This document shows positions 2,531 to 59,690 of a stretch of 64,000 bases of DNA, in pieces. The position numbers and the translations under genes are program-made. The stretch's first letter is position 1; each line of letters opens with the position of its first letter. Origin of the DNA: Dictyostelium discoideum. Its lineage: Eukaryota. A model generated the notes under the pieces. It ran no database searches and was not told the DNA's origin. It worked only from the letters and a program-made list of their open reading frames with translations. The stretch covers positions 4,416,001 to 4,480,000 of the forward strand of contig CM000151.3 of assembly GCA_000004695.1 (NCBI GenBank). The letters run 5' to 3'.

Positions 2531-3673
<1,143 letters not shown>

Positions 3674-4250
3674 ACAATTAAAACTAGTGATGAAAGTGCT
3701 TCTCACACAAACAAATATATTTAAATGTATAATAATAATAAAATATAATTATTTTTAATGGTTGTTGATCTTTATCCGACTATCAAAAAAAAAAAAATAT
3801 ATATATATATCTACACAATCTTTTTGTTTATTTTAGTGTTTTTTTTTTTTTTTAATTAGAGTTTTATTTTATTGTATTAGTTTTTAATAATTGATATTTT
3901 TGAAAATGAGTTATGAATAATTGGTGTATAATTTCTGGAAATTGATAAAGTCTTTATCGAATGAGGTAATATTCGACCTAAAATACCAAGTGGTTGGTTA
4001 AAATCATTTCCAAAGATAAGGTTTTCAATTTCATCACCAAGTACACCAGGTAGTAATATTTGGTTGAAATCAGTACCAAATTTTAATTGTTTTAATAATT
4101 TAGGAAGGGATCTTAATTGTTGATTAAATTTTGCACCAAATGTAAGACTTGTTATTGAATCTGGTAAAGAGAAATCAATTATTGGTTGGTTGAACCAAGT
4201 TCCAAATGAAAGTGTTTGATGTTGTTAGATAAATGATTTTTTTGAATTTG

Positions 4251-5029
4251 TTAATTGAATTTTTCACTAAATGCTAGAGATGTAACACTTTTTGGAATTG
4301 AAGAGTTTAATAAACACATGTCGAAATCATTACCAAGTTTTAATGTTTTTACATTGGGTGGAATTGTTTCATTGTCTAATTTTTGATTAAAATAAAATCC
4401 AAATTCTAAATTTGTTACATTTGGGGGAATTATATTAAATAATGGTTGATTAATTTGATCACCCAATTTTAAAAATTCAACACTGTTGGGAATATCTCCT
4501 GGTTTTAAAATTTGGTTAAATTCATTTCCAAATTCCAATATTTTCAAAGAGGAAGGGAGTGAACCAGTTATTGGATTATTATATCCATGATTTAATGATA
4601 CACTTTCAACTGATTCTGGTATTACTCCTTTTTCCAATATATGATTGAAATCATATTCTGTAATATTTAATGTCTTACTATTATTTGGAATCACACCATG
4701 TGCAAGAGGTTGTTTTGAATTATAAATTAAAGTCCCTACTGAATGTGGAATATTACCAGGTTTTAACAGAGTATTTTCATTTTCAATATCAACCAACTCT
4801 AAACAAATAATATATTCTCTTTCTTTATATTCTAATAACTGTTCTCTTGTTAGTTTGACATATTTATTTTGTAGGTGATTTAATATTTCATTTCTTATAA
4901 CCATACATTGGAATATTTTCTTATAGAATAAATCATCACTTTTGGCAACATTCTTTTTTTCCTTACACTGAATTTGTAAAACTAATTGTAAACCAATATC
5001 ATTGTTCTCAATATTATCAATATTATCAA

Positions 5030-5107
<78 letters not shown>

Positions 5108-5447
5108 TATTATTAATATTTTTAAAATTATTATAGTTGTTAATATTATTATTATTAATAGTTATACAATGGTTGTTTTGATGTTGGGAATTATTTTTTA
5201 TATTTTTATTATAGTTATTATTGTTGATTATTGGTTGGTTTTTATTATTAATATTCCGATAATTAATATCACTATTATTATTTATAAAATTATTAATATT
5301 ATCATTGTTAATATTTATTTTCTGTTGAAATTCATTACTTTTTTTATTATCTTTATAATTAGGGTAAGTTTTATTGGTTTTTTCAGTGAAAAAATCTTTA
5401 ATAGTAATAAAAATAAACAAAAAATATAACAATAAAAGATAATCCAA
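4251..5447 (-). CDS. FNIP-repeat-containing protein (main ORF; frame-disrupted at both ends, possible pseudogene)
   Basis: The C-terminal half of the ORF has about 10 tandem FNIP-type repeats (L.FG..FNQ.L..G.IP.SV..L). An internal poly-Asn tract is encoded by (AAT)n at 5041-5110. The ORF-track M at 5447 is actually TTG, and the nearest upstream ATG (5469) is in another frame. Further FNIP repeats continue downstream of the stop in another frame (3877..4224). Confidence 0.55.
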
Positions 5448-5554
5448 TATTTATCAAATAATCTTCCATTTTCAATTCTCTTGGTGACAGTGCAAAAATA
5501 TGTATACACTGTTTATTATTATTATTGTTTTTTTTTAACCACTTGTATAAATAA

Positions 5555-5596
<42 letters not shown>

Positions 5597-5672
5597 TTTC
5601 TTTGGGAGTAAAAAAATAAATTAAATAAATAAATTATATTAAGTAAAAAAAAAAAAAAAAGATAGAATTTAT

Positions 5673-6739
5673 TTAAAAAAATAATTTTTTTAATTTTGAA
5701 AGTAATCCATTATTTTGACTTTGATTTTCATTAGTTTCATTTAATTTTGAAAGTATTCTTAATTCTTGTTTTGATAAAGATTTTCCATTTAATAATGTTA
5801 TTGAAAAATCGTTATTACCATTATTATCTATAGATAATAAGTTGAATAAAAATCTGTAGAATAAAGTTTGATTTGGATTTAAATCTATAGCTTTTAATAT
5901 TAAATCTTTTTGAGATATATTTTTATTATTACCTAAAGTGATTAGTTCATTTGGTTTCATTATAATTGCAAGATTATAATAAGTTGAATCATAATTTGGT
6001 TCTAATTCTAATAATTTAATATATAAATCCTTTTTATTTACATTTTTACCACCAACTAAAATTGATTCATCAGGTTTTAAAGATACTGCTAAATTATAAT
6101 ATGCTTCAACATTATTATTATCCAATTCAATAGCTTTACAATATAATTGTTTTTTATTTAATTTTCTACCATCTAATAAAGTTATTATAATTTCACCTTG
6201 TTGTTGTTGTTGTTCTGATTTTTGTTGTTGTTGTTTTGATAATAATAAATTTGCTAAATTATTAAATGAATAAGAAGTACTCTTTAAATTTGGATTAACA
6301 TCAATTGATTTTAAATATAGTTCAATATCAGTCATTGTTTTACCATTTAATAAAGTTATAGAATTCTCAACTGATGTATCTAATTGTTCAGCTAAATTAA
6401 AATAAGAATTTGAAGTATTTGGTTGAAGATCAATCGATTTCAAATATAATTGTCTTCTATTCATTTTTGTACCATCCGATAGAGTAACCACTTCATTTGA
6501 ACTATTTAATTGATTTGCTAAATTATGATATGGTTTTGAAAATTTTGGATCAATTTCAATCGATTTCAAATATAATTGTTTTCTTGTCATAATTGTACCA
6601 TCTAATAATTTAATTGATTTCTCATTATTCAACAAATTACCTAAATTATTATACGCTATTGAATGATTTGGATTTAAATCAATTGATCTTAAATATAAAT
6701 CTTTTTTATTTAATTTTTCACCATTTAATAATTCAATTA

Positions 6740-6820
<81 letters not shown>

Positions 6821-7142
6821 CAATTAAATAAGCTAAATTATGATAAGAGTTTGAATTTGGTTCCATATCAATTGATTTTAATAATAATTTCTTTTTATTA
6901 AATTTTTCACCATTTTTTAATTCAACAACTTCGTTATCATCTAAACAAATTGATAAATTAAAATAGGTATTATGATCAACATTTAAATTTTCATTAATCT
7001 CTTTTAAATGTAAAGTTTTATTCTTTGCACTGTTATTATTTAAAATTTGATGAATTTTATTAACTTGTTGTGTATGATTTGTAAAAAAACATTTTTGTTG
7101 TTTAATTAAAAGTTTATTAATATTTTTAGTTATTTTAAACAT
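5673..7142 (-). CDS. TPR-like repeat protein (489 aa) with an embedded 28-residue poly-Asn tract
   Basis: The real ATG is at 7142-7140 (the track M at 7268 is TTG and lies in a poly-F artefact). About 10 repeats of the form YxNLAxxL...LYLKSIDLNPN (TPR-like A..Y.NL...L..A.....P) alternate with ITLLNGKxLxKKxL linkers. The poly-Asn tract is encoded by (ATT)n on the plus strand at 6740-6830. Stop codon is at 5675-5673. Confidence 0.65.
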
Positions 7143-7151
7143 TTTTTGATG

Positions 7152-7185
<34 letters not shown>

Positions 7186-7292
7186 AAAAAAAAAAGAAAA
7201 TGATTAAAAAATAAAAAAAAAAACAAAAAAGGATTAAATTCATTTTTGACCAAAAAATAAAAAAACAAAATTTTATTTTTGTCACTAATGTT

Positions 7293-10200
7293 TTATTTAT
7301 ATCCATTACGGTTGTTCTTTTTATGACTATTACTACTATTATTATTATTATCAGAAAATGAACCTGGAACATATGAAAAACCACCAACTACTTGAATTTC
7401 TAAATCATCAGTTGAAGAATGAAATTGAGAGGTTGATTGATCACCAAAAAAATCATCACCAAAACCATATTTATCTACATTATTGTTTCTATTATTATTA
7501 TTATTATTTTTATTATGATTATTTACATTCTTATTACCATTGTTATTATTTTTATTATTGTTTTTATTTTTATTATTATTTTTATTATAATTATTATTAT
7601 TATGATTATTATTATTGTTGTTATTACCTGGTTTTGGTTTATTTTGTTGTGATTGTGAAAATGAGTGATAGGGTTGTGGTTGTTGTAATAACTCCTGTTC
7701 TAATTGTTGATCATGTTGTAAACTTAATTGTTGTAATTGTTGTTTGAAAAACTCTGGTTGTTGTTGGTAAAACTCTGGTGGTTTATAATGATTTGGTTGT
7801 TGTTGTTGTTGTTTTTGTTGTTGTTGTGGTTGTCGTTGTTGTTGTTGTTGATATAATTGTTGTTGGTGTTGTTGTTGTTGATAATAATTATTATTTGTTG
7901 GTTTTGATTGAATAGTTTGATATGGTTTGAATTCACAAAGATCTGAACATTTTTTTAAACATTTTAGACCTTTATCATTTAATTTTGAACAAGGTTCACA
8001 ACATCTATCAAAAGGATTTAATACTCTATAACAAGGAGTTTTAACAGAATGACCACAACGTGGATGAGTTTTATCGATATCAACCTCACAACGACAAATT
8101 TTACAACATTCCAATTGACAAAGATGACCACAATCCAATTGTTTTAAACAAGGTTTGTTACAATTGAAATTATGATTAGTTTGAAGTGGATGACATTTCT
8201 TTGAGCAAGTATGACCACAATCCAATAAAAAGGCACAAGGCTTACTACAACCACCATCTTTTGCATATTGAATGAAATCTTTTTCATCACGAATATGAGT
8301 GATACCTTTTCTATGATTTTCACAAACCAATGGTAAAGTTTTACCGACTTGATTATTTTCTTCAAGTTTTGGAAACATATTTTTCCAAATTCCAGCATCC
8401 TCTCTTGATCTTTCAAGTAATTCTCTATTACCAAAAATGAATAAACCTTCTCTCGCTCTTGAAAGCATAACATTGATACGATTTGTTAATGAAAGGAAAC
8501 CTGCGACATTTCTTTCATTATTTCTAACCGAAGAAATGATGATAATATCATTCTCTTCACCTTGATATTGATCTACAGTTCTAACTAAAATACGTTGTAG
8601 TGGGTGAGTTTGACCTTGAGGTGGGACATTTGAAGAATGTTTCATTTTTTCATTGATAGCATCATTTATCTCCAAGAGTTGACCAGCGTATGGAGCTAAA
8701 ATTGTAATTCTCTCTGGTTCATAATTTTGATCCAATAGATAATTTGCAAAGCTTGTGATTAACCTAGCCTCAAAAGCATTGGATTTACTATTGATATGTG
8801 GTTCTTGAGCACGGCTTTCCCTATTAGAATGATCAAAGAAATAGACATTATAAAGAACACCACGAACAATTGATCTATAACCATCGGCTGAATTAATTCT
8901 CTCTTTTTCAACAACACTACTATGATTTTGTAAATTTGGGTAAACTGGTACAACAAATTGTGAAATACTTGGTACCATTCTACGTTGAGTTGCCAATGTT
9001 GAACATCTACCTTTATTCTCTACAATACGTTCAAAGATTGAAATATTTAAATTGAATTTAGTTAACAAAGTATGATCAGTACAAATTGGTTTCAATTGTT
9101 TATGATCACCAATTAAAATACAATGTTGAATACTTGATGGTAAACAAGCAGTGATTTGACCCTCCAATGTCAATGCACATTCTTCAATAATCAAAACTTT
9201 AATCTTTAATGATTCAAACAATTGTTTCATTCTTGAAGCACCAGTGATAGTGGCAGAGATAACTTCAGCACCTTGCAAGAGTTCTCTTTGATCATCAGAG
9301 ACTGCTTTTTTAATATTTTGAGTTTGAATATGAAATTCTTCAAAAAGTTTCTCAATTAACTCTAAACATTTTTCAACTTTAATTTTACACCAATATCTAT
9401 AGAGTTTAATTTTTTCTTTTTCTCCAAGTGAGTTAATTTTCTTTATATTCTTTTTTCTTTCACCTCTCATTGGTACATCATTATATTCTAAAAATTTCAA
9501 ACAATTACCAATTTCATTGAAATATTTCTTTGGTTGATTTCTTTTATTCTTTGAGAAGGAGAAATCACCTTTACTTTCAAATGTTTTCATCTCTTTTTTT
9601 CTTTCCAATAGTTGATTTCTAAGAATATCCTTATCGATTTTATAATTGTTTTCATTATCGATATCAATTGAATCATTGATAAATATATCATCCTCTGATT
9701 GTTCTAATTCTTGATCCTCTGAAAATTTAATTACCCTTTTCTCTGGTCTTTTAAGTTTATAATTTGATTGATGAGATAATGCATTCTCGAAATGATTCTC
9801 TTCTTTCAATTCCTTTTTAATATTTTCAATTTCACCTCTAATTGGATTAATCCAAAGTTGGTATTGTTTCTCATGTTCAAATGCTGATTCATAATCTTCT
9901 TCATCATTGGTAACTAATTGTAAATCTTCAAATCCAAATGGTTCAACTAATCTTTTTAATGAATCTCTAAGTTGCATTGTGATTTCAGAGATCTTTCTAT
10001 AGCCTTCATGAGAAAGTCCACCATATTTAATTTTGGCTTTCATTGTGTAATCTTTTAATGCTGGATCTTTTGATCTTGTACCAACTCTAATAATATTCTT
10101 TGTAATTGGTAATAGACCACTTGTAAACTGATCCAAGGCATGATTGGTATGACTAAGCACTAGAATCGGACTAGCCTCTGATCTACCGAAATCCTCTTTC

Positions 10201-11899
10201 ATTTTGTTATGTATTATATGAAACAACTTTTTACCTATAAAAGACTTACCAGTACCTGGTGGACCTTGAATTAAACTTAACGATGAACCAAGTGTTTGTT
10301 CAAGCGCTACCATTTGTGAAGGATCTAATTGACCCAATTGAGTTGGAAAACCATCTTTTATTATATCAACTTGAGATGGATCATCACCTTTGTTTGAAAG
10401 TTCAATTTCATCATTGAATATCTTTTTAAAATCAAACACTGGATTATCCTTAATATATTGTGGTGGTGTCTCAGTCTCCTTTCTATTACAATAAACCAAT
10501 GTATCCTTGAATGGTAAATTATCCTCATCAATTCTTTGCAATGATAATAAAATATTTTCATAGGATATAAAAAAGGATGGTGATTCAATCATAACATAAA
10601 TATTATCAAAAAATTCCTTATTAAATTTTAAACCATTACTATTTGAATTGCCCAAATTTATATCGTTTACACTTGGCTGTTGATATGGTGATAAACCAAC
10701 CTTTTTATGACCACCTTTTTCTTCTCTCTCTGAAACAATCATAAAATGTACCGTTTGAAAATTATCACAACTTAATGCTACTAATGATCCATTTAATAAT
10801 TTTGGAAATGTTTCCCAATCAATATTATGATGATAATCAAATGTAAATTCATAACCAATTTTAAATCCTGATGTTGTTAAACCTTTTTAAAAAAAAAAAA
10901 AATTAATTATTTAATAATTTTTATTATTATATTTATATATATATTTACCTCTAACTCTAACATTTGTATATAAATTTGGACCAATTTCACCTTTATTAAA
11001 AGATTGTAAAGCAGTACGAAATGGATTAATAATATCTTCTCTAATTAAACGAAAATGAGTTTCTAAATATTCATATGGTGAACTATAACGACCTTTTTTA
11101 ATTTTATTTAATTTGTTTTCATCTAATCTTCTTTTTAATTCACCTGGTTCTGGTACGATTGATAATTTTTTATAACATTTTGGTGTATTTGATTCATCGA
11201 ATAGTTTCTTATATCTATCGAAAAATTGATTAATATAATTGATTTTTTTTTTTTGTTTTTCTTTTTCTTTTTCATTTTCTTCATCTTCTTGAACATGTTG
11301 ATTTTGATTATTATTGGTTGGTTTCTTTTTCTTTATAATATCATTAATATTATAGTTATTATAATTACTAATTAAACTTGTGAATGAGTTTTTTAAGGTA
11401 TCAACCAACTTAAATGTATATTCTACTGAATCAATATCGAATAAATCTGAAATCTTTTCAAATATTTTAACGGCCCTTTCAAACAATTGAATTGGATGAT
11501 CATATTTTGATTTAAAGTAATTCTGAAGATTTGAATTATGGGAAACTAATGCTGATTTCATAATTTTACCATAGAATTCCATTTGTAATGGGTGATCTAA
11601 TTTCTCCAATACTGACTTGTGTGAAAAGATCTCTATAATCCACTCAATGATTTGATTGGTTAAATTGGTCTTTGAAAAAATCATTGAAAATGATGTTTTG
11701 TTTTGTTCAATTCTTTCAATTAAAATTTTACTATTCTTTTTACTTGATTTTAATTCATCATATACACTCTTTAACCCAATAAAACCATCCATCATTCCTG
11801 GATCAAAATCATTTTTATAATTATTTTGGTAACTTGTTTCAGTATCTTCTTCAAAAGTATTGTTATTTCTATCCTTATTATTTCTATCTTTATTATTTC

Positions 11900-11939
<40 letters not shown>

Positions 11940-12420
11940 GTTATTGTTAATTGCTGGTTTATATACAAAACCACCCAAACTACTCATTTCATTATCATCG
12001 GAATTATTATTTGATTTTTTTTGTTGTTGTATTGATTTTATTGGTTTTTGTTGAAATATATATTGGTGTGATTGCTCTTTTAATTGAGAAAGGAGTTGAT
12101 TAAAATTTTTTTTATTTACACAACTAAATTTTAATTCTTCTATTAATAATTTTCTGCCATCAACCTTTTATTATTATTATTATTATTTTTTCAAAAGGAT
12201 ACCATAAACAAAAAAAAGAAAAAATAAAAAGTAAGTAGTGTGAATTTGATTTTGAATTGTTTTTTTTTTTTTTTATTTTATTTTATTTTTTTTTAAAATG
12301 AGGAATTACCTTTAAATCTCTAAATGTTGGAATCAATTCTGAATATCCAATTGCGTCTAACCAACTAGATACTTGTTCATTTTTCCAATCTGGTGCAGGT
12401 ATATTTTTATAATTATTCAT
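7293..12420 (-). CDS. ZNFX1-like protein: N-terminal SAM domain, Upf1-like SF1 helicase core, NFX1-type zinc fingers and a Q/N-rich tail. 3 exons: 12420..12310, 12164..10949, 10882..7293 (about 1637 aa)
   Basis: Exon 1 starts at ATG 12420 and encodes MNNYKNIPAPDWKNEQVSSWLDAIGYSELIPTFRDLK; it ends at GTAATT (donor at 12309). Intron 1 is 145 nt and ends in ...aataaaAG. Exon 2 is in frame and continues the SAM domain (VDGRKLLIEELKF...) into the track ORF 10911..11987. Its donor is AGAG|GTAAAT at 10948, and the 64-nt intron 2 ends in tttttttttttttaaaaAG at 10884/10883. Exon 3 is in frame with the track ORF 7293..10742. Helicase motifs present are GPPGTGKSF (Walker A), LIIEECAL, ILIGDHKQLKP, VDQYQGEENDIIIIS and NRINVMLSRAREGLFIFGN. 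The Cys-rich block CSKPCAFLLDCGHTCSKKCHP...CGHLCQLECCKICRC matches NFX1-type fingers. Confidence 0.75.
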
Positions 12421-12764
12421 AAAAAAAAATTCTGAATAAAACAAATAAACCTTAATATTTTTTATTAAGTTTTATTTGTCAATTAAAAAATGAATTTTTG
12501 AAAAAAAAAAATAAAAAATAAAAAAAAACAATTGCAAAAATAAAAAAAGTAAAAAAAAAAAAAATAAAATTAAAAATAAAAAAAATAAAATTTCTTTTTA
12601 TTGGAAAAACGGGAAGATGTTTTAGGATTATCAAGATGGAACTTGTTGAAAATAATTTTTAAAGGATTACAATAAGATATTGATAAAAACATTCCAATAT
12701 GATTTTTAATTTTTAATTTTTTTTTTAATCAATTAATTTTATTTATTTTTAATGTAATAATTCA

Positions 12765-13084: not shown

Positions 13085-13744
13085 TTAAATTTTTTCTATT
13101 ATTTTTTTTTTATTTAAAATTGGTGATAATTCAGGATTTGAAGTATCTTCAGTGTTTGGAATATTATCAAATGAGTCTTCTTTTGGTTGATTACGAGAAG
13201 GTATACGATCATGAATTAAATGATTGAAAAAACCCAATATTTCATCTGCCAAAGAATCAGAGATACCTTCTGATGATGGTTCACGTACATGAATAACTAT
13301 ACCACCATCAGAAGCGCCACCAGTATTAACATCATTTGAGGAGAATGCAGGTGAAGAATTTTGTCTTTGTTTATCTTTTTCCTCTTTTTCTTTTCTTTCC
13401 TTCTCCTCCTTTTCTTTTCTTTCCTTCTCCTCCTTTTCTTTTCTTTCCTTCTCCTCCTTTTCTTGTTTCTCTTTTTCTTCTCTCTCTTGTTTCTCTTTTT
13501 GTTCTCTTGCTTCTCTTTCTTGTTTCTCTTTTTGATCTCTTGCATCTCTTTCAGCTTGATCTTTTTTAAATTTCTCCAATTCTTGTTCAAATTCTAAACG
13601 ACGTTGATGATCAATCTCTTGTTGACGTTTTAATTCCTCTTGTTGAAGTTTCAATTCTTCTTGTTGACGAGTTAATTGTTCTTGTAACCATTGTTGGTTT
13701 TGTTGAATTTGTAATTCCTCTTGTTGACGAGTTTCTTTTGGATT

Positions 13745-13776
<32 letters not shown>

Positions 13777-14625
13777 CTTGTAATTCTTGTAATCTTGCTT
13801 GTTCTTCTTGTAATTGCTGTAATGTTGGATGTTGTCTTGATGTTTGTTCTGGTGTTTGTGTTACAAATTCTTCATTATTTTGTTGTTGTTCTTGTTGTTG
13901 TCTTTGATGTTGGTGATGATGCTGTTGTTGTTGTCTTTGATTATCTTGTGGCGAACGATTACCACCTGCGCCTAGTGATAATGAAATTAAAAGTTTTTGC
14001 ATTTTTTCAGAATTTAAACCTAATGAATCAAATAATAAATCTTCCAAGGTTGTTGTTGTTGAACTCAACCCAATATTATCATTTGAAGTTGATTGAGTAC
14101 CTTTTATTTGTTTATTACTCACTTTAATATTGCTATCATTATTATTGTCACTATTTTTTTGTTGTTCTTTTTGTTGTTGTTTAAATTCTTCTAATAACTC
14201 TTGATTTTCAATTTGTTGATATCTAATAGCCTGTTCTTTTTCAATTTTATTAGCATCTTCAATTATTTTCTCTATTTTATCTAAATAACTATTTATTGGT
14301 GTTTCTAATATAAACTTTTTAAATGTATTGTACAATGATTCAATATCTTTATTAAATTCATCTCTTTCTTTTTCAACTAATTCTCTTTTTGAATTAAATT
14401 CTTGATCATTATTTTTTTTAAAATAGTTATCCTTTTGGGAAAAAAAAAAAAAAAAAAAAAAACAGATCGAGAAAAAGAAAAAAGGTGGTGTTAATACCAA
14501 AGAAATTTTTTTTTTTTTTAAAAAAAAGGGTGAAAATCGAAATCGAATTTTAGATTTAGACATACACAATATCCTATTGAAAATAATAATGAAAATATGA
14601 TTATTAGTGATAATAATATCTTCAT
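13085..14625 (-). CDS. Coiled-coil E/K/Q-rich protein with a predicted signal peptide. 2 exons: 14625..14566 and 14431..13085 (about 467 aa)
   Basis: ATG at 14625 follows a poly-A leader. The 20-codon exon (MKILLSLIIIFSLLFSIGYC) ends at a GTATGT donor (14565). The 134-nt AT-rich intron ends in ttttttttcccaaaAG (14433/14432). Exon 2 is in frame with the track ORF 13085..14569 from DNYFKKNNDQEF onward; the track start MCMSKSKIRF... is translated poly-T. The protein has heptad-like Q/E/K/R-rich coiled-coil sequence and EKEEKERK x3 repeats encoded by a 24-bp tandem repeat. Confidence 0.5.
13381..13470. repeat. 24-bp tandem repeat (TTCCTTCTCCTCCTTTTCTTTTCT x3 plus partials), coding
   Basis: Three near-identical 24-bp units run from 13396 to 13467, with partial flanking copies. 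On the minus strand they encode the EKEEKERK repeat of the coiled-coil protein. Confidence 0.8.

Positions 14626-39451: not shown

Positions 39452-40594
<1,143 letters not shown>

Positions 40595-41215: not shown

Positions 41216-59690
<18,475 letters not shown>

Follow-up and report, generated by a model that had tools for sequence, protein, structure and literature searches.

The 64-kb window analyzed here is a stretch of 64,000 nucleotides from Dictyostelium discoideum (contig CM000151.3, positions 4,416,001 to 4,480,000 of the forward strand; coordinates below count from its first letter). On its minus strand, between positions 7293 and 12420, it carries a gene for a ZNFX1-type RNA helicase with an N-terminal SAM domain. 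An earlier note made from the sequence of the window had assembled this gene from two open reading frames (ORFs), 7293..10742 (1,149 amino acids) and 10911..11987 (358 amino acids), and a short first exon. Both frames are present on the minus strand in the ORF list, together with a small frame that covers 12283..12444, and the locus is confirmed as a single protein-coding gene with the following exons and introns.

12310..12420, minus strand: exon 1, 111 nt, with the ATG at 12420; residues 1-37, the first half of the SAM domain
12165..12309, minus strand: intron 1, 145 nt, GTAATT...AAAAG, phase 0; divides the SAM domain
10949..12164, minus strand: exon 2, 1,216 nt; residues 38-443, the final codon being split
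10883..10948, minus strand: intron 2, 66 nt, GTAAAT...AAAAAG, phase 1
7293..10882, minus strand: exon 3, 3,590 nt including the stop at 7293..7295; residues 443-1638

Joined in this way (12420..12310, 12164..10949, 10882..7293), the exons yield a 4,917-nt coding sequence for 1,638 amino acids with a single terminal stop. The three-exon model therefore holds with one correction. Intron 1 has the boundaries first assigned to it (12309..12165, GT..AG), but the end originally given for intron 2, 10885, is 2 nt off, breaks the frame, and brings in 62 stops. The GT..AG intron ends at 10883, the only acceptor that preserves the frame, and the predicted length of the protein changes from about 1,637 to 1,638 residues.

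Base composition and codon usage agree with these boundaries. An in-frame stop lies 18 codons upstream of the ATG at 12420, and the G+C content is 21-29% in the exons, 13.8% in intron 1, 3.0% in intron 2, and 10-14% in the flanks. Codon usage was scored as log-odds, with the helicase core of the same gene as the training set. In exon 1 (+13.1), in the 59 exon 2 codons ahead of the ATG at 11987 (+21.0), and in the 46 exon 3 codons ahead of the ATG at 10742 (+20.4), the proposed frame is the only one with a positive score; in both introns every frame scores negative. The exon 2 stretch (open from 12167 to the ATG at 11987) and the exon 3 stretch upstream of the ATG at 10742 contain no ATG, GTG, or TTG, and can therefore be translated only if spliced to an upstream exon. 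Stretches below 10% G+C inside the exons were considered as cryptic in-frame introns and rejected, as they are only AAT-repeat poly-Asn runs.

Intron 2 is well supported by comparison with the two closest annotated relatives, whose proteins were mapped exactly onto their genomic loci (Heterostelium album, GL290991.1; Cavenderia fasciculata, GL883006.1). Both genes have a phase-1 intron at the homologous position, with the junctions (marked by a slash) VRVR/GLTTSGF in the window, VVFK/NLSCTRS in H. album, and ASFK/SLSCTYS in C. fasciculata. Because position and phase are the same, intron 2 is an inherited one, and alignments to ZNFX1 continue uninterrupted across the junction. An AT-rich contig (Logan SRR24091727; 4,561 nt, 30% G+C) that encodes an RZ-bearing ZNFX1 relative grouping with the dictyostelid clade was rejected as a further witness for this intron, since it has a frameshift at that site and not an intron; it is also uninformative on the SAM domain because its 5′ end is missing. 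Intron 1 is less secure than intron 2, its support being internal to the window sequence. Read-through meets a stop after 8 codons, whereas splicing of exon 1 to exon 2 raises the Pfam SAM_1 score from 21.6 to 27.5 bits and rebuilds the segment FRDLK/VDGRKLL, which aligns with FREQQVDGDLLL of SARM1. A tblastn search with the SAM domain of the Cavenderia protein (P0011, residues 236-260) matches exon 1 at 12390..12316 with 48% identity.

From N- to C-terminus, sequence comparison places the following domains and motifs in the predicted protein.

12075..12399, minus strand: SAM domain, residues ~8-67, interrupted by intron 1, its second half shortened
11781..12074, minus strand: N/K-rich low-complexity linker, residues 68-165; 29% Asn
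11241..11780, minus strand: ARM-like all-helical domain, residues ~166-345 with a folded core at ~159-307 (from BLAST, AlphaFold, and Foldseek)
10692..10973, minus strand: ZNFX1 domain (Pfam PF25396), residues 435-506, spanning intron 2; 56.2 bits against a cut-off of 27
9081..10331, minus strand: helicase lobe 1 with a large 1C insertion (AAA_11), residues 627-1043; 93.1 bits
10242..10265, minus strand: Walker A motif GPPGTGKS in lobe 1
9174..9191, minus strand: deviant Walker B motif IIEECA in lobe 1, residues 1007-1012
9093..9110, minus strand: motif III GDHKQL in lobe 1
8424..9047, minus strand: helicase lobe 2 (AAA_12), residues 1055-1262; 133.7 bits; contains QRRM, VDQYQGEE, and LSRAREG
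7935..8249, minus strand: short stalk of about three NFX1-type zinc fingers, residues 1321-1425; 21 Cys and 6 His in 1311-1440
7296..7898, minus strand: Q/N-rich C-terminal tail, residues 1438-1638 (201 residues); 21% Q and 25% N

These features identify the predicted protein as a ZNFX1-family superfamily 1 (SF1) RNA helicase. The best match among all PDB sequences is human ZNFX1 (9q9z_A, E=5e-127), aligned over residues 269-725 and 887-1393, followed by UPF1 at E=1.5e-31; the helicase motifs thus align to the ZNFX1 family as had been proposed. The intervening region (~725-887) does not align or is variable, which is also the case in ZNFX1. A BLAST comparison with a bird ZNFX1 yields one collinear alignment (window residues 166-1425 against 152-1393, 27% identity over ~1,330 aligned positions). 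An exhaustive HMMER search with exon 3 returned 2,207 proteins at E<=1e-30, and the named near relatives among them are animal ZNFX1 proteins and dictyostelid ‘NF-X1-type zinc finger-containing proteins’. The proteins matched by the C-terminal half of the helicase are at most 825 amino acids long, come mostly from environmental and read-archive assemblies, and are uninformative on N-terminal domains.

The elements of an Upf1-like SF1 helicase core are all located in the protein (AAA_11, AAA_12, GPPGTGKS, GDHKQL, QRRM, VDQYQGEE, and LSRAREG), including the three motifs quoted in the earlier note (GPPGTGKS at 649-656, VDQYQGEE at 1212-1219, and LSRAREG at 1249-1255), and every ATPase and helicase motif is intact. 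The 1C insertion is evident from the AAA_11 match, which covers 417 residues for a 257-position profile. Within it, the stretch aligned to the conserved acidic ‘plug’ helix is less acidic in the window protein; as this alignment falls in a variable region, we draw no conclusion from it. The Walker B motif of ZNFX1, as defined in the human protein, is EEAA instead of DExx, with the second Glu being catalytic (bioRxiv 10.1101/2025.10.14.682297). Both Glu residues are kept in IIEECA, in which the third position is changed from Ala to Cys; EEAA is found in 8 of 8 aligned relatives. Judged by its position and by the published domain description of ZNFX1 (bioRxiv 10.1101/2025.10.14.682297), the PF25396 domain is probably the helicase 1B barrel.

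Two other affiliations may be considered for such a core. A generic Upf1-like helicase, of the nonsense-mediated decay or the Smubp2/Aquarius type, would also account for matches to UPF1, SMUBP2, and Aquarius, which the helicase core indeed finds at E=1e-31 to 1e-20. The match to ZNFX1 is, however, about 96 orders of magnitude better and extends well beyond the helicase core, the Walker B motif is of the EE type, and Pfam detects a ZNFX1 domain and no UPF1 zinc-binding (CH) domain. With the PDB ranking and the collinearity with bird ZNFX1 pointing the same way, we rejected a generic identity, which is hardly credible for this protein. The second affiliation is with the NFX1 transcription factors, which are marked by multiple zf-NF-X1 repeats and whose members also have RING/PHD and R3H domains. 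Pfam finds no zf-NF-X1, RING, or R3H match in the window protein, and the finger type is all that it has in common with them.

N-terminal to the ZNFX1 domain, exon 2 was folded with AlphaFold from an alignment of 35 relatives. The low-complexity linker has a predicted local distance difference test (pLDDT) score below 50 in this model, and residues ~159-307 form a confident all-helical domain (pLDDT 84-96). Among 350,542 PDB chains, the one that Foldseek ranks first is the expected target, the crystal structure 9eve_A of the human ZNFX1 ARM domain (probability 1.00, target-normalized template modeling score 0.56, E=0.013). Together with the alignment to bird ZNFX1, which begins at residue 166, the model gives moderate, not strong, support for an N-terminal ARM (armadillo-type) domain.

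The SAM domain was sought on the N-terminus with profile hidden Markov models. When this region is scanned in isolation it scores above both Pfam cut-offs (SAM_1, 27.5 bits against 23; SAM_2, 27.2-28.6 bits against 20.5), in agreement with the assignment in the earlier note. Exon 1 alone reaches 22.0 bits for SAM_2, and a scan of the full-length protein gives a borderline SAM_2 match to residues 12-43 (21.0 bits). The signature W..V..WL..IG...F....VDG..LL is present. The best PDB sequence matches of the N-terminus are liprin-beta (E=5.3e-07) and the first SAM domain of SARM1 (E=8.6e-6), and a profile of three sequences, the window SAM and those of two dictyostelid homologues, matches full-length SAM structures from SARM1 (6.6e-9) and also from SHANK3, SAMHD1, Scm, Ph, CNK, and DGK-delta.

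The two homologues place the domain in a wider context. H. album EFA77791.1 (1,647 amino acids) and C. fasciculata EGG25206.1 (1,864 amino acids) each combine a SAM domain, the ZNFX1 domain, the helicase, and an RZ finger. With the three-sequence profile no SAM domain was detected in the other 153 of 155 close relatives, and none is in the domain lists of vertebrate ZNFX1, so that the domain does lie outside the canonical animal architecture, as the earlier note had remarked. Its further suggestion of an amoebozoan-specific variant is right in that the fusion is lineage-limited among these 155 relatives, but the fusion is not unique to the window gene. It also occurs in annotated proteins from two further dictyostelid species, so that within the present sampling it is a feature at the level of Dictyostelia; common to these dictyostelids, it would have arisen before they diverged. 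The window gene is accordingly a lineage-specific variant of a known family and not a new kind of system, and the SAM fusion is already contained in automatically annotated public proteins. Our literature searches returned nothing relevant linking ZNFX1 with a SAM domain, Dictyostelium, or amoebae, nor NF-X1 with discoideum.

In the H. album locus (GL290991.1), two SAM-ZNFX1-RZ genes stand head-to-tail in tandem (positions 1-2579 and 3001-8362 of the fetched locus). The copies are 64% identical over the C-terminal 858 amino acids of the upstream copy, the part that lies inside the fetched locus, which points to duplication of the family in another dictyostelid after the SAM fusion arose.

In its C-terminal region, too, the window protein departs from ZNFX1 as known from vertebrates. 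In canonical ZNFX1 the proximal fingers are followed by more fingers, a Miz-like domain, and an RZ finger, which make the protein a bi-catalytic E3 ubiquitin ligase (bioRxiv 10.1101/2025.10.14.682297). In the window protein, the cysteines of residues 1321-1425 line up one by one with those of the first human and bird ZNFX1 fingers, and the NFX1 finger pattern is matched twice in the Cys-rich region, once strictly and once in relaxed form. The NFX1-type fingers reported previously are thus recognizable directly after the helicase, in a stalk truncated to about three fingers (~105 residues), but Pfam zf-NF-X1 does not match the Cys-rich region even at E values up to 10. Nor do the precomputed domain lists of vertebrate ZNFX1 contain that model (PF01422). 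Where canonical ZNFX1 has its distal fingers, Miz-like domain, and RZ finger, the window protein has the Q/N-rich tail of the earlier description, with 46% Q+N. A short island within the tail, residues ~1594-1638 (7296-7430, minus strand), is not of low complexity (VDKYGFGDDFFGDQSTSQFHSSTDDLEIQVVGGFSYVPGSF). Its sequence is acidic and aromatic, and it could serve as a short linear interaction motif.

The absence of the Miz-like and RZ domains had gone unremarked before. Pfam ZnF_RZ has no match in the window protein, whereas the dictyostelid relatives P0007, P0008, and P0011 score 68-75 bits, and a tblastn search with the C-termini of P0008 and P0011 matched only the proximal fingers, with nothing in the 64-kb window below 7902 in any frame. 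Having neither domain, the protein would itself be unable to act as an E3 ligase in the manner of vertebrate ZNFX1. It might nevertheless work like vertebrate ZNFX1 as an innate-immune RNA sensor that feeds into ubiquitin signaling, the E3 activity being supplied in trans by an RZ-bearing paralogue or by another ligase that SAM-SAM contacts bring in. In mammals ZNFX1 acts in immunity (bioRxiv 10.1101/2025.10.14.682297), the immune adaptor SARM1 is among the best SAM matches, the other dictyostelid SAM-ZNFX1 proteins do have the RZ finger (in one case in two tandem genes), and a common SAM domain could mediate hetero-oligomers. Since the window protein lacks the E3 domains, tblastn finds no RZ-bearing gene within the window, and no literature was found that ties ZNFX1 to Dictyostelium, we regard this arrangement as unlikely, though as a serious competitor.

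A neighbor-joining tree built on 911 conserved columns places the window protein on a long branch, sister to a clade of Heterostelium, Cavenderia, Synstelium, and Acytostelium sequences and two further dictyostelid-like ones. Its best-segment identity to members of this clade is 36-43%, against 41-54% for the members among themselves. From these data the window protein may be either a fast-evolving orthologue or an old paralogue.

Taken together, the evidence makes it probable that the gene encodes an E3-less ZNFX1-type helicase to which a SAM domain has been joined and which, once bound to RNA, would self-assemble through its SAM domain, its ARM domain, and its tail. Human ZNFX1 is an RNA-stimulated 5'-3' translocase that dimerizes through the ARM domain and forms polymers via weak contacts of the zinc-finger stalk (bioRxiv 10.1101/2025.10.14.682297). 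By analogy, the window protein would be an RNA-stimulated 5'-3' translocase, ARM-dimerized and prone to polymerize, and the SAM domain ahead of the ARM domain may represent a dedicated oligomerization interface. SAM-SAM, ARM-ARM, and prion-like tail contacts could then concentrate RNA-bound helicase units into higher-order assemblies or granules. We propose assembly because a SAM domain whose closest matches include self-associating ones precedes the ARM domain, and a prion-like tail follows the truncated stalk. In the absence of an E3 module, the output would more likely be retention or remodeling of RNA, or recruitment of partners, than ubiquitin signaling of the vertebrate type. Hrr1 of Schizosaccharomyces pombe and ZNFX-1 of Caenorhabditis elegans act in small-RNA amplification that depends on RNA-dependent RNA polymerase (RdRP) (PMC9276528), and the window protein may resemble these RZ-less helicases in such a process. 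The dsRNA-sensing or antiviral role that the animal protein might suggest is an extrapolation for the window protein. A more elaborate scheme, which we consider doubtful, is that the SAM domain constitutes a dedicated polymerization switch in Dictyostelia, whereby in the E3-less window copy RNA binding frees the helicase and a SAM-mediated filament or ring like those of SARM1 and SHANK traps the RNA in granules, creating an amoebozoan RNA-surveillance or immune ‘signalosome’ that may co-polymerize with RZ-bearing SAM-ZNFX1 paralogues and obtain E3 activity in trans.

A number of observations weigh against the main reading, several of them concerning the SAM domain. In the full-length scan SAM_1 reaches 22.2 bits over residues 11-44, short of its cut-off of 23, and the Pfam match covers profile positions 2-36 only, which is the first half. 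Compared with the dictyostelid homologues, six residues are missing between the VDG..LL segment and the last helix, and because of this deletion in the second half the SAM fold may be incomplete; the model of exon 2 has two helices at pLDDT 60-77 where the C-terminal half of the domain would lie. Intron 1 is absent from the Heterostelium and Cavenderia genes, in which the SAM domain sits within a single exon. For the ARM domain, no PDB fold match was found at E<=0.001, making the match at E=0.013 a weak one. Tails rich in Q and N are frequent among Dictyostelium proteins and may well be without a function.

The partial profile match and the non-conserved intron could also mean that the SAM exon lies outside the main product, which would start at the ATG at 11987 (Met97) or at 10742, the SAM-like frame being a chance match or a relic. 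Such a start would leave unexplained the 59 codons upstream of the ATG at 11987, which are open, lack a start codon, show coding-type codon usage in the one frame only, and extend the SAM motif of exon 1 to a higher score once joined. The homologues likewise place a SAM domain ahead of the ARM domain, and exon 1 is itself found by tblastn with the Cavenderia SAM. With a start at 10742 the protein would in addition lose its conserved ARM domain and some of the ZNFX1 domain, a loss that reaches across intron 2, itself conserved in position. A SAM-less main product is on these grounds very unlikely.

The remaining points against the main reading concern sequence drift. EECA deviates from an otherwise invariant EEAA, and because the protein sits on a long branch and has changes at otherwise invariant positions, its function may have drifted. 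Carried to its end, this argument would make the gene a decaying duplicate, a truncated, fast-evolving paralogue near to a pseudogene and devoid of helicase function. The long branch outside the other dictyostelid sequences, the loss of the distal fingers, the Miz-like domain, and the RZ finger, the shortened SAM domain, and the changes at invariant positions would fit such decay. A spliced ORF of 4.9 kb is, however, uninterrupted in DNA of 22-29% G+C where stops are frequent, the catalytic motifs are all kept, codon usage is coding-like, and the zinc ligands align with those of ZNFX1. Decay to this degree is most improbable, and an E3-less SAM-ZNFX1 helicase that would self-assemble when bound to RNA continues to be the reading we prefer.

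The surroundings of the gene are extremely AT-rich. The window holds actin, FNIP-repeat, ABC-G, SPX-EXS, FG-nucleoporin, and VPS13-type genes along with poly-Asn and poly-Gln tracts, a composition and gene set that fit a social amoeba of the Dictyostelium type. Directly downstream of the helicase gene lie a TPR_17-type repeat gene with a long poly-Asn run (5673-7268, minus strand) and then an FNIP-repeat gene (4251-5447, minus strand), neither with an evident functional link to the helicase. The upstream neighbor (13085-14569, minus strand), an ORF rich in Glu, Lys, and Gln, contains EKERKEKEEK-type repeats and has no Pfam match. Farther away, a single ORF of 5,535 amino acids (42478-59085, minus strand) is followed by one with a VPS13 C-terminal domain (41216-42376, minus strand), and the two presumably form one giant gene for a VPS13-family lipid-transfer protein. 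Two actin ORFs of 376 amino acids each (2543-3673 and 39464-40594, both plus strand) have the identical Pfam score of 506.2 bits and lie ~37 kb apart. Between 26899 and 31082, long ORFs overlap on both strands; those on the minus strand encode FG-nucleoporin repeats, and those on the plus strand, without a Pfam match, are probably by-products of repetitive sequence.

As gene annotation the locus is ordinary, and its value lies in what the variant may teach about self-assembly versus ubiquitylation in ZNFX1. Social amoebae provide natural variants of the family to which a SAM domain, a candidate oligomerization module, has been added, and in the window copy the E3 module is also gone, as is half of the zinc-finger stalk that forms polymers. 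Should assembly be driven by the SAM domain, higher-order clustering, and not ubiquitylation, would gain support as the ancestral core of ZNFX1 function, and the idea could be tested in a genetically tractable organism that has RdRPs, Argonautes, and active retrotransposons.

Among known systems, the likeness to UPF1 and other SF1B Upf1-like helicases is confined to the RecA lobes and motifs I-VI; the match to UPF1 stands at 1.5e-31, and the window protein has no CH zinc-knuckle domain, a much larger 1C, and a Walker B motif of the EE and not the DE type. Oligomerizing SAM domains (SARM1 SAM1, SHANK3, Scm/Ph, and liprin-beta) are among the best sequence matches of its N-terminal domain, whose second half is ~6 residues shorter than in the dictyostelid homologues. 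We know of no SAM domain reported for C. elegans ZNFX-1 or S. pombe Hrr1. By their descriptions the window protein is likened to these two in being E3-less, as both are ZNFX1-family helicases that lack the RZ E3 finger and work on RNA within granules or RdRP complexes (bioRxiv 10.1101/2025.10.14.682297; PMC9276528); proteins named Hrr1-like by JGI match it in the helicase core only. Human and vertebrate ZNFX1 (9q9z, 9eve) share with it, in the same order, the ARM-like domain, the ZNFX1 domain, the SF1 helicase with a large 1C and an EE-type Walker B, and the proximal fingers; the window protein has in addition the N-terminal SAM domain and the Q/N-rich tail, whereas its stalk is reduced to ~105 residues and the Miz-like domain and RZ finger, and hence intrinsic E3 ligase activity, are lacking. 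Closest are H. album EFA77791.1 and C. fasciculata EGG25206.1, with a best-segment identity of 37-40%. They differ in retaining the long finger stalk, the RZ finger, and a full-length SAM domain, whereas in the window protein the E3 end is missing and the SAM domain is shortened and split by an extra intron; they agree with it in the SAM domain ahead of the ARM domain, ZNFX1 domain, and helicase, in the phase-1 intron 2, and in their grouping in the tree.

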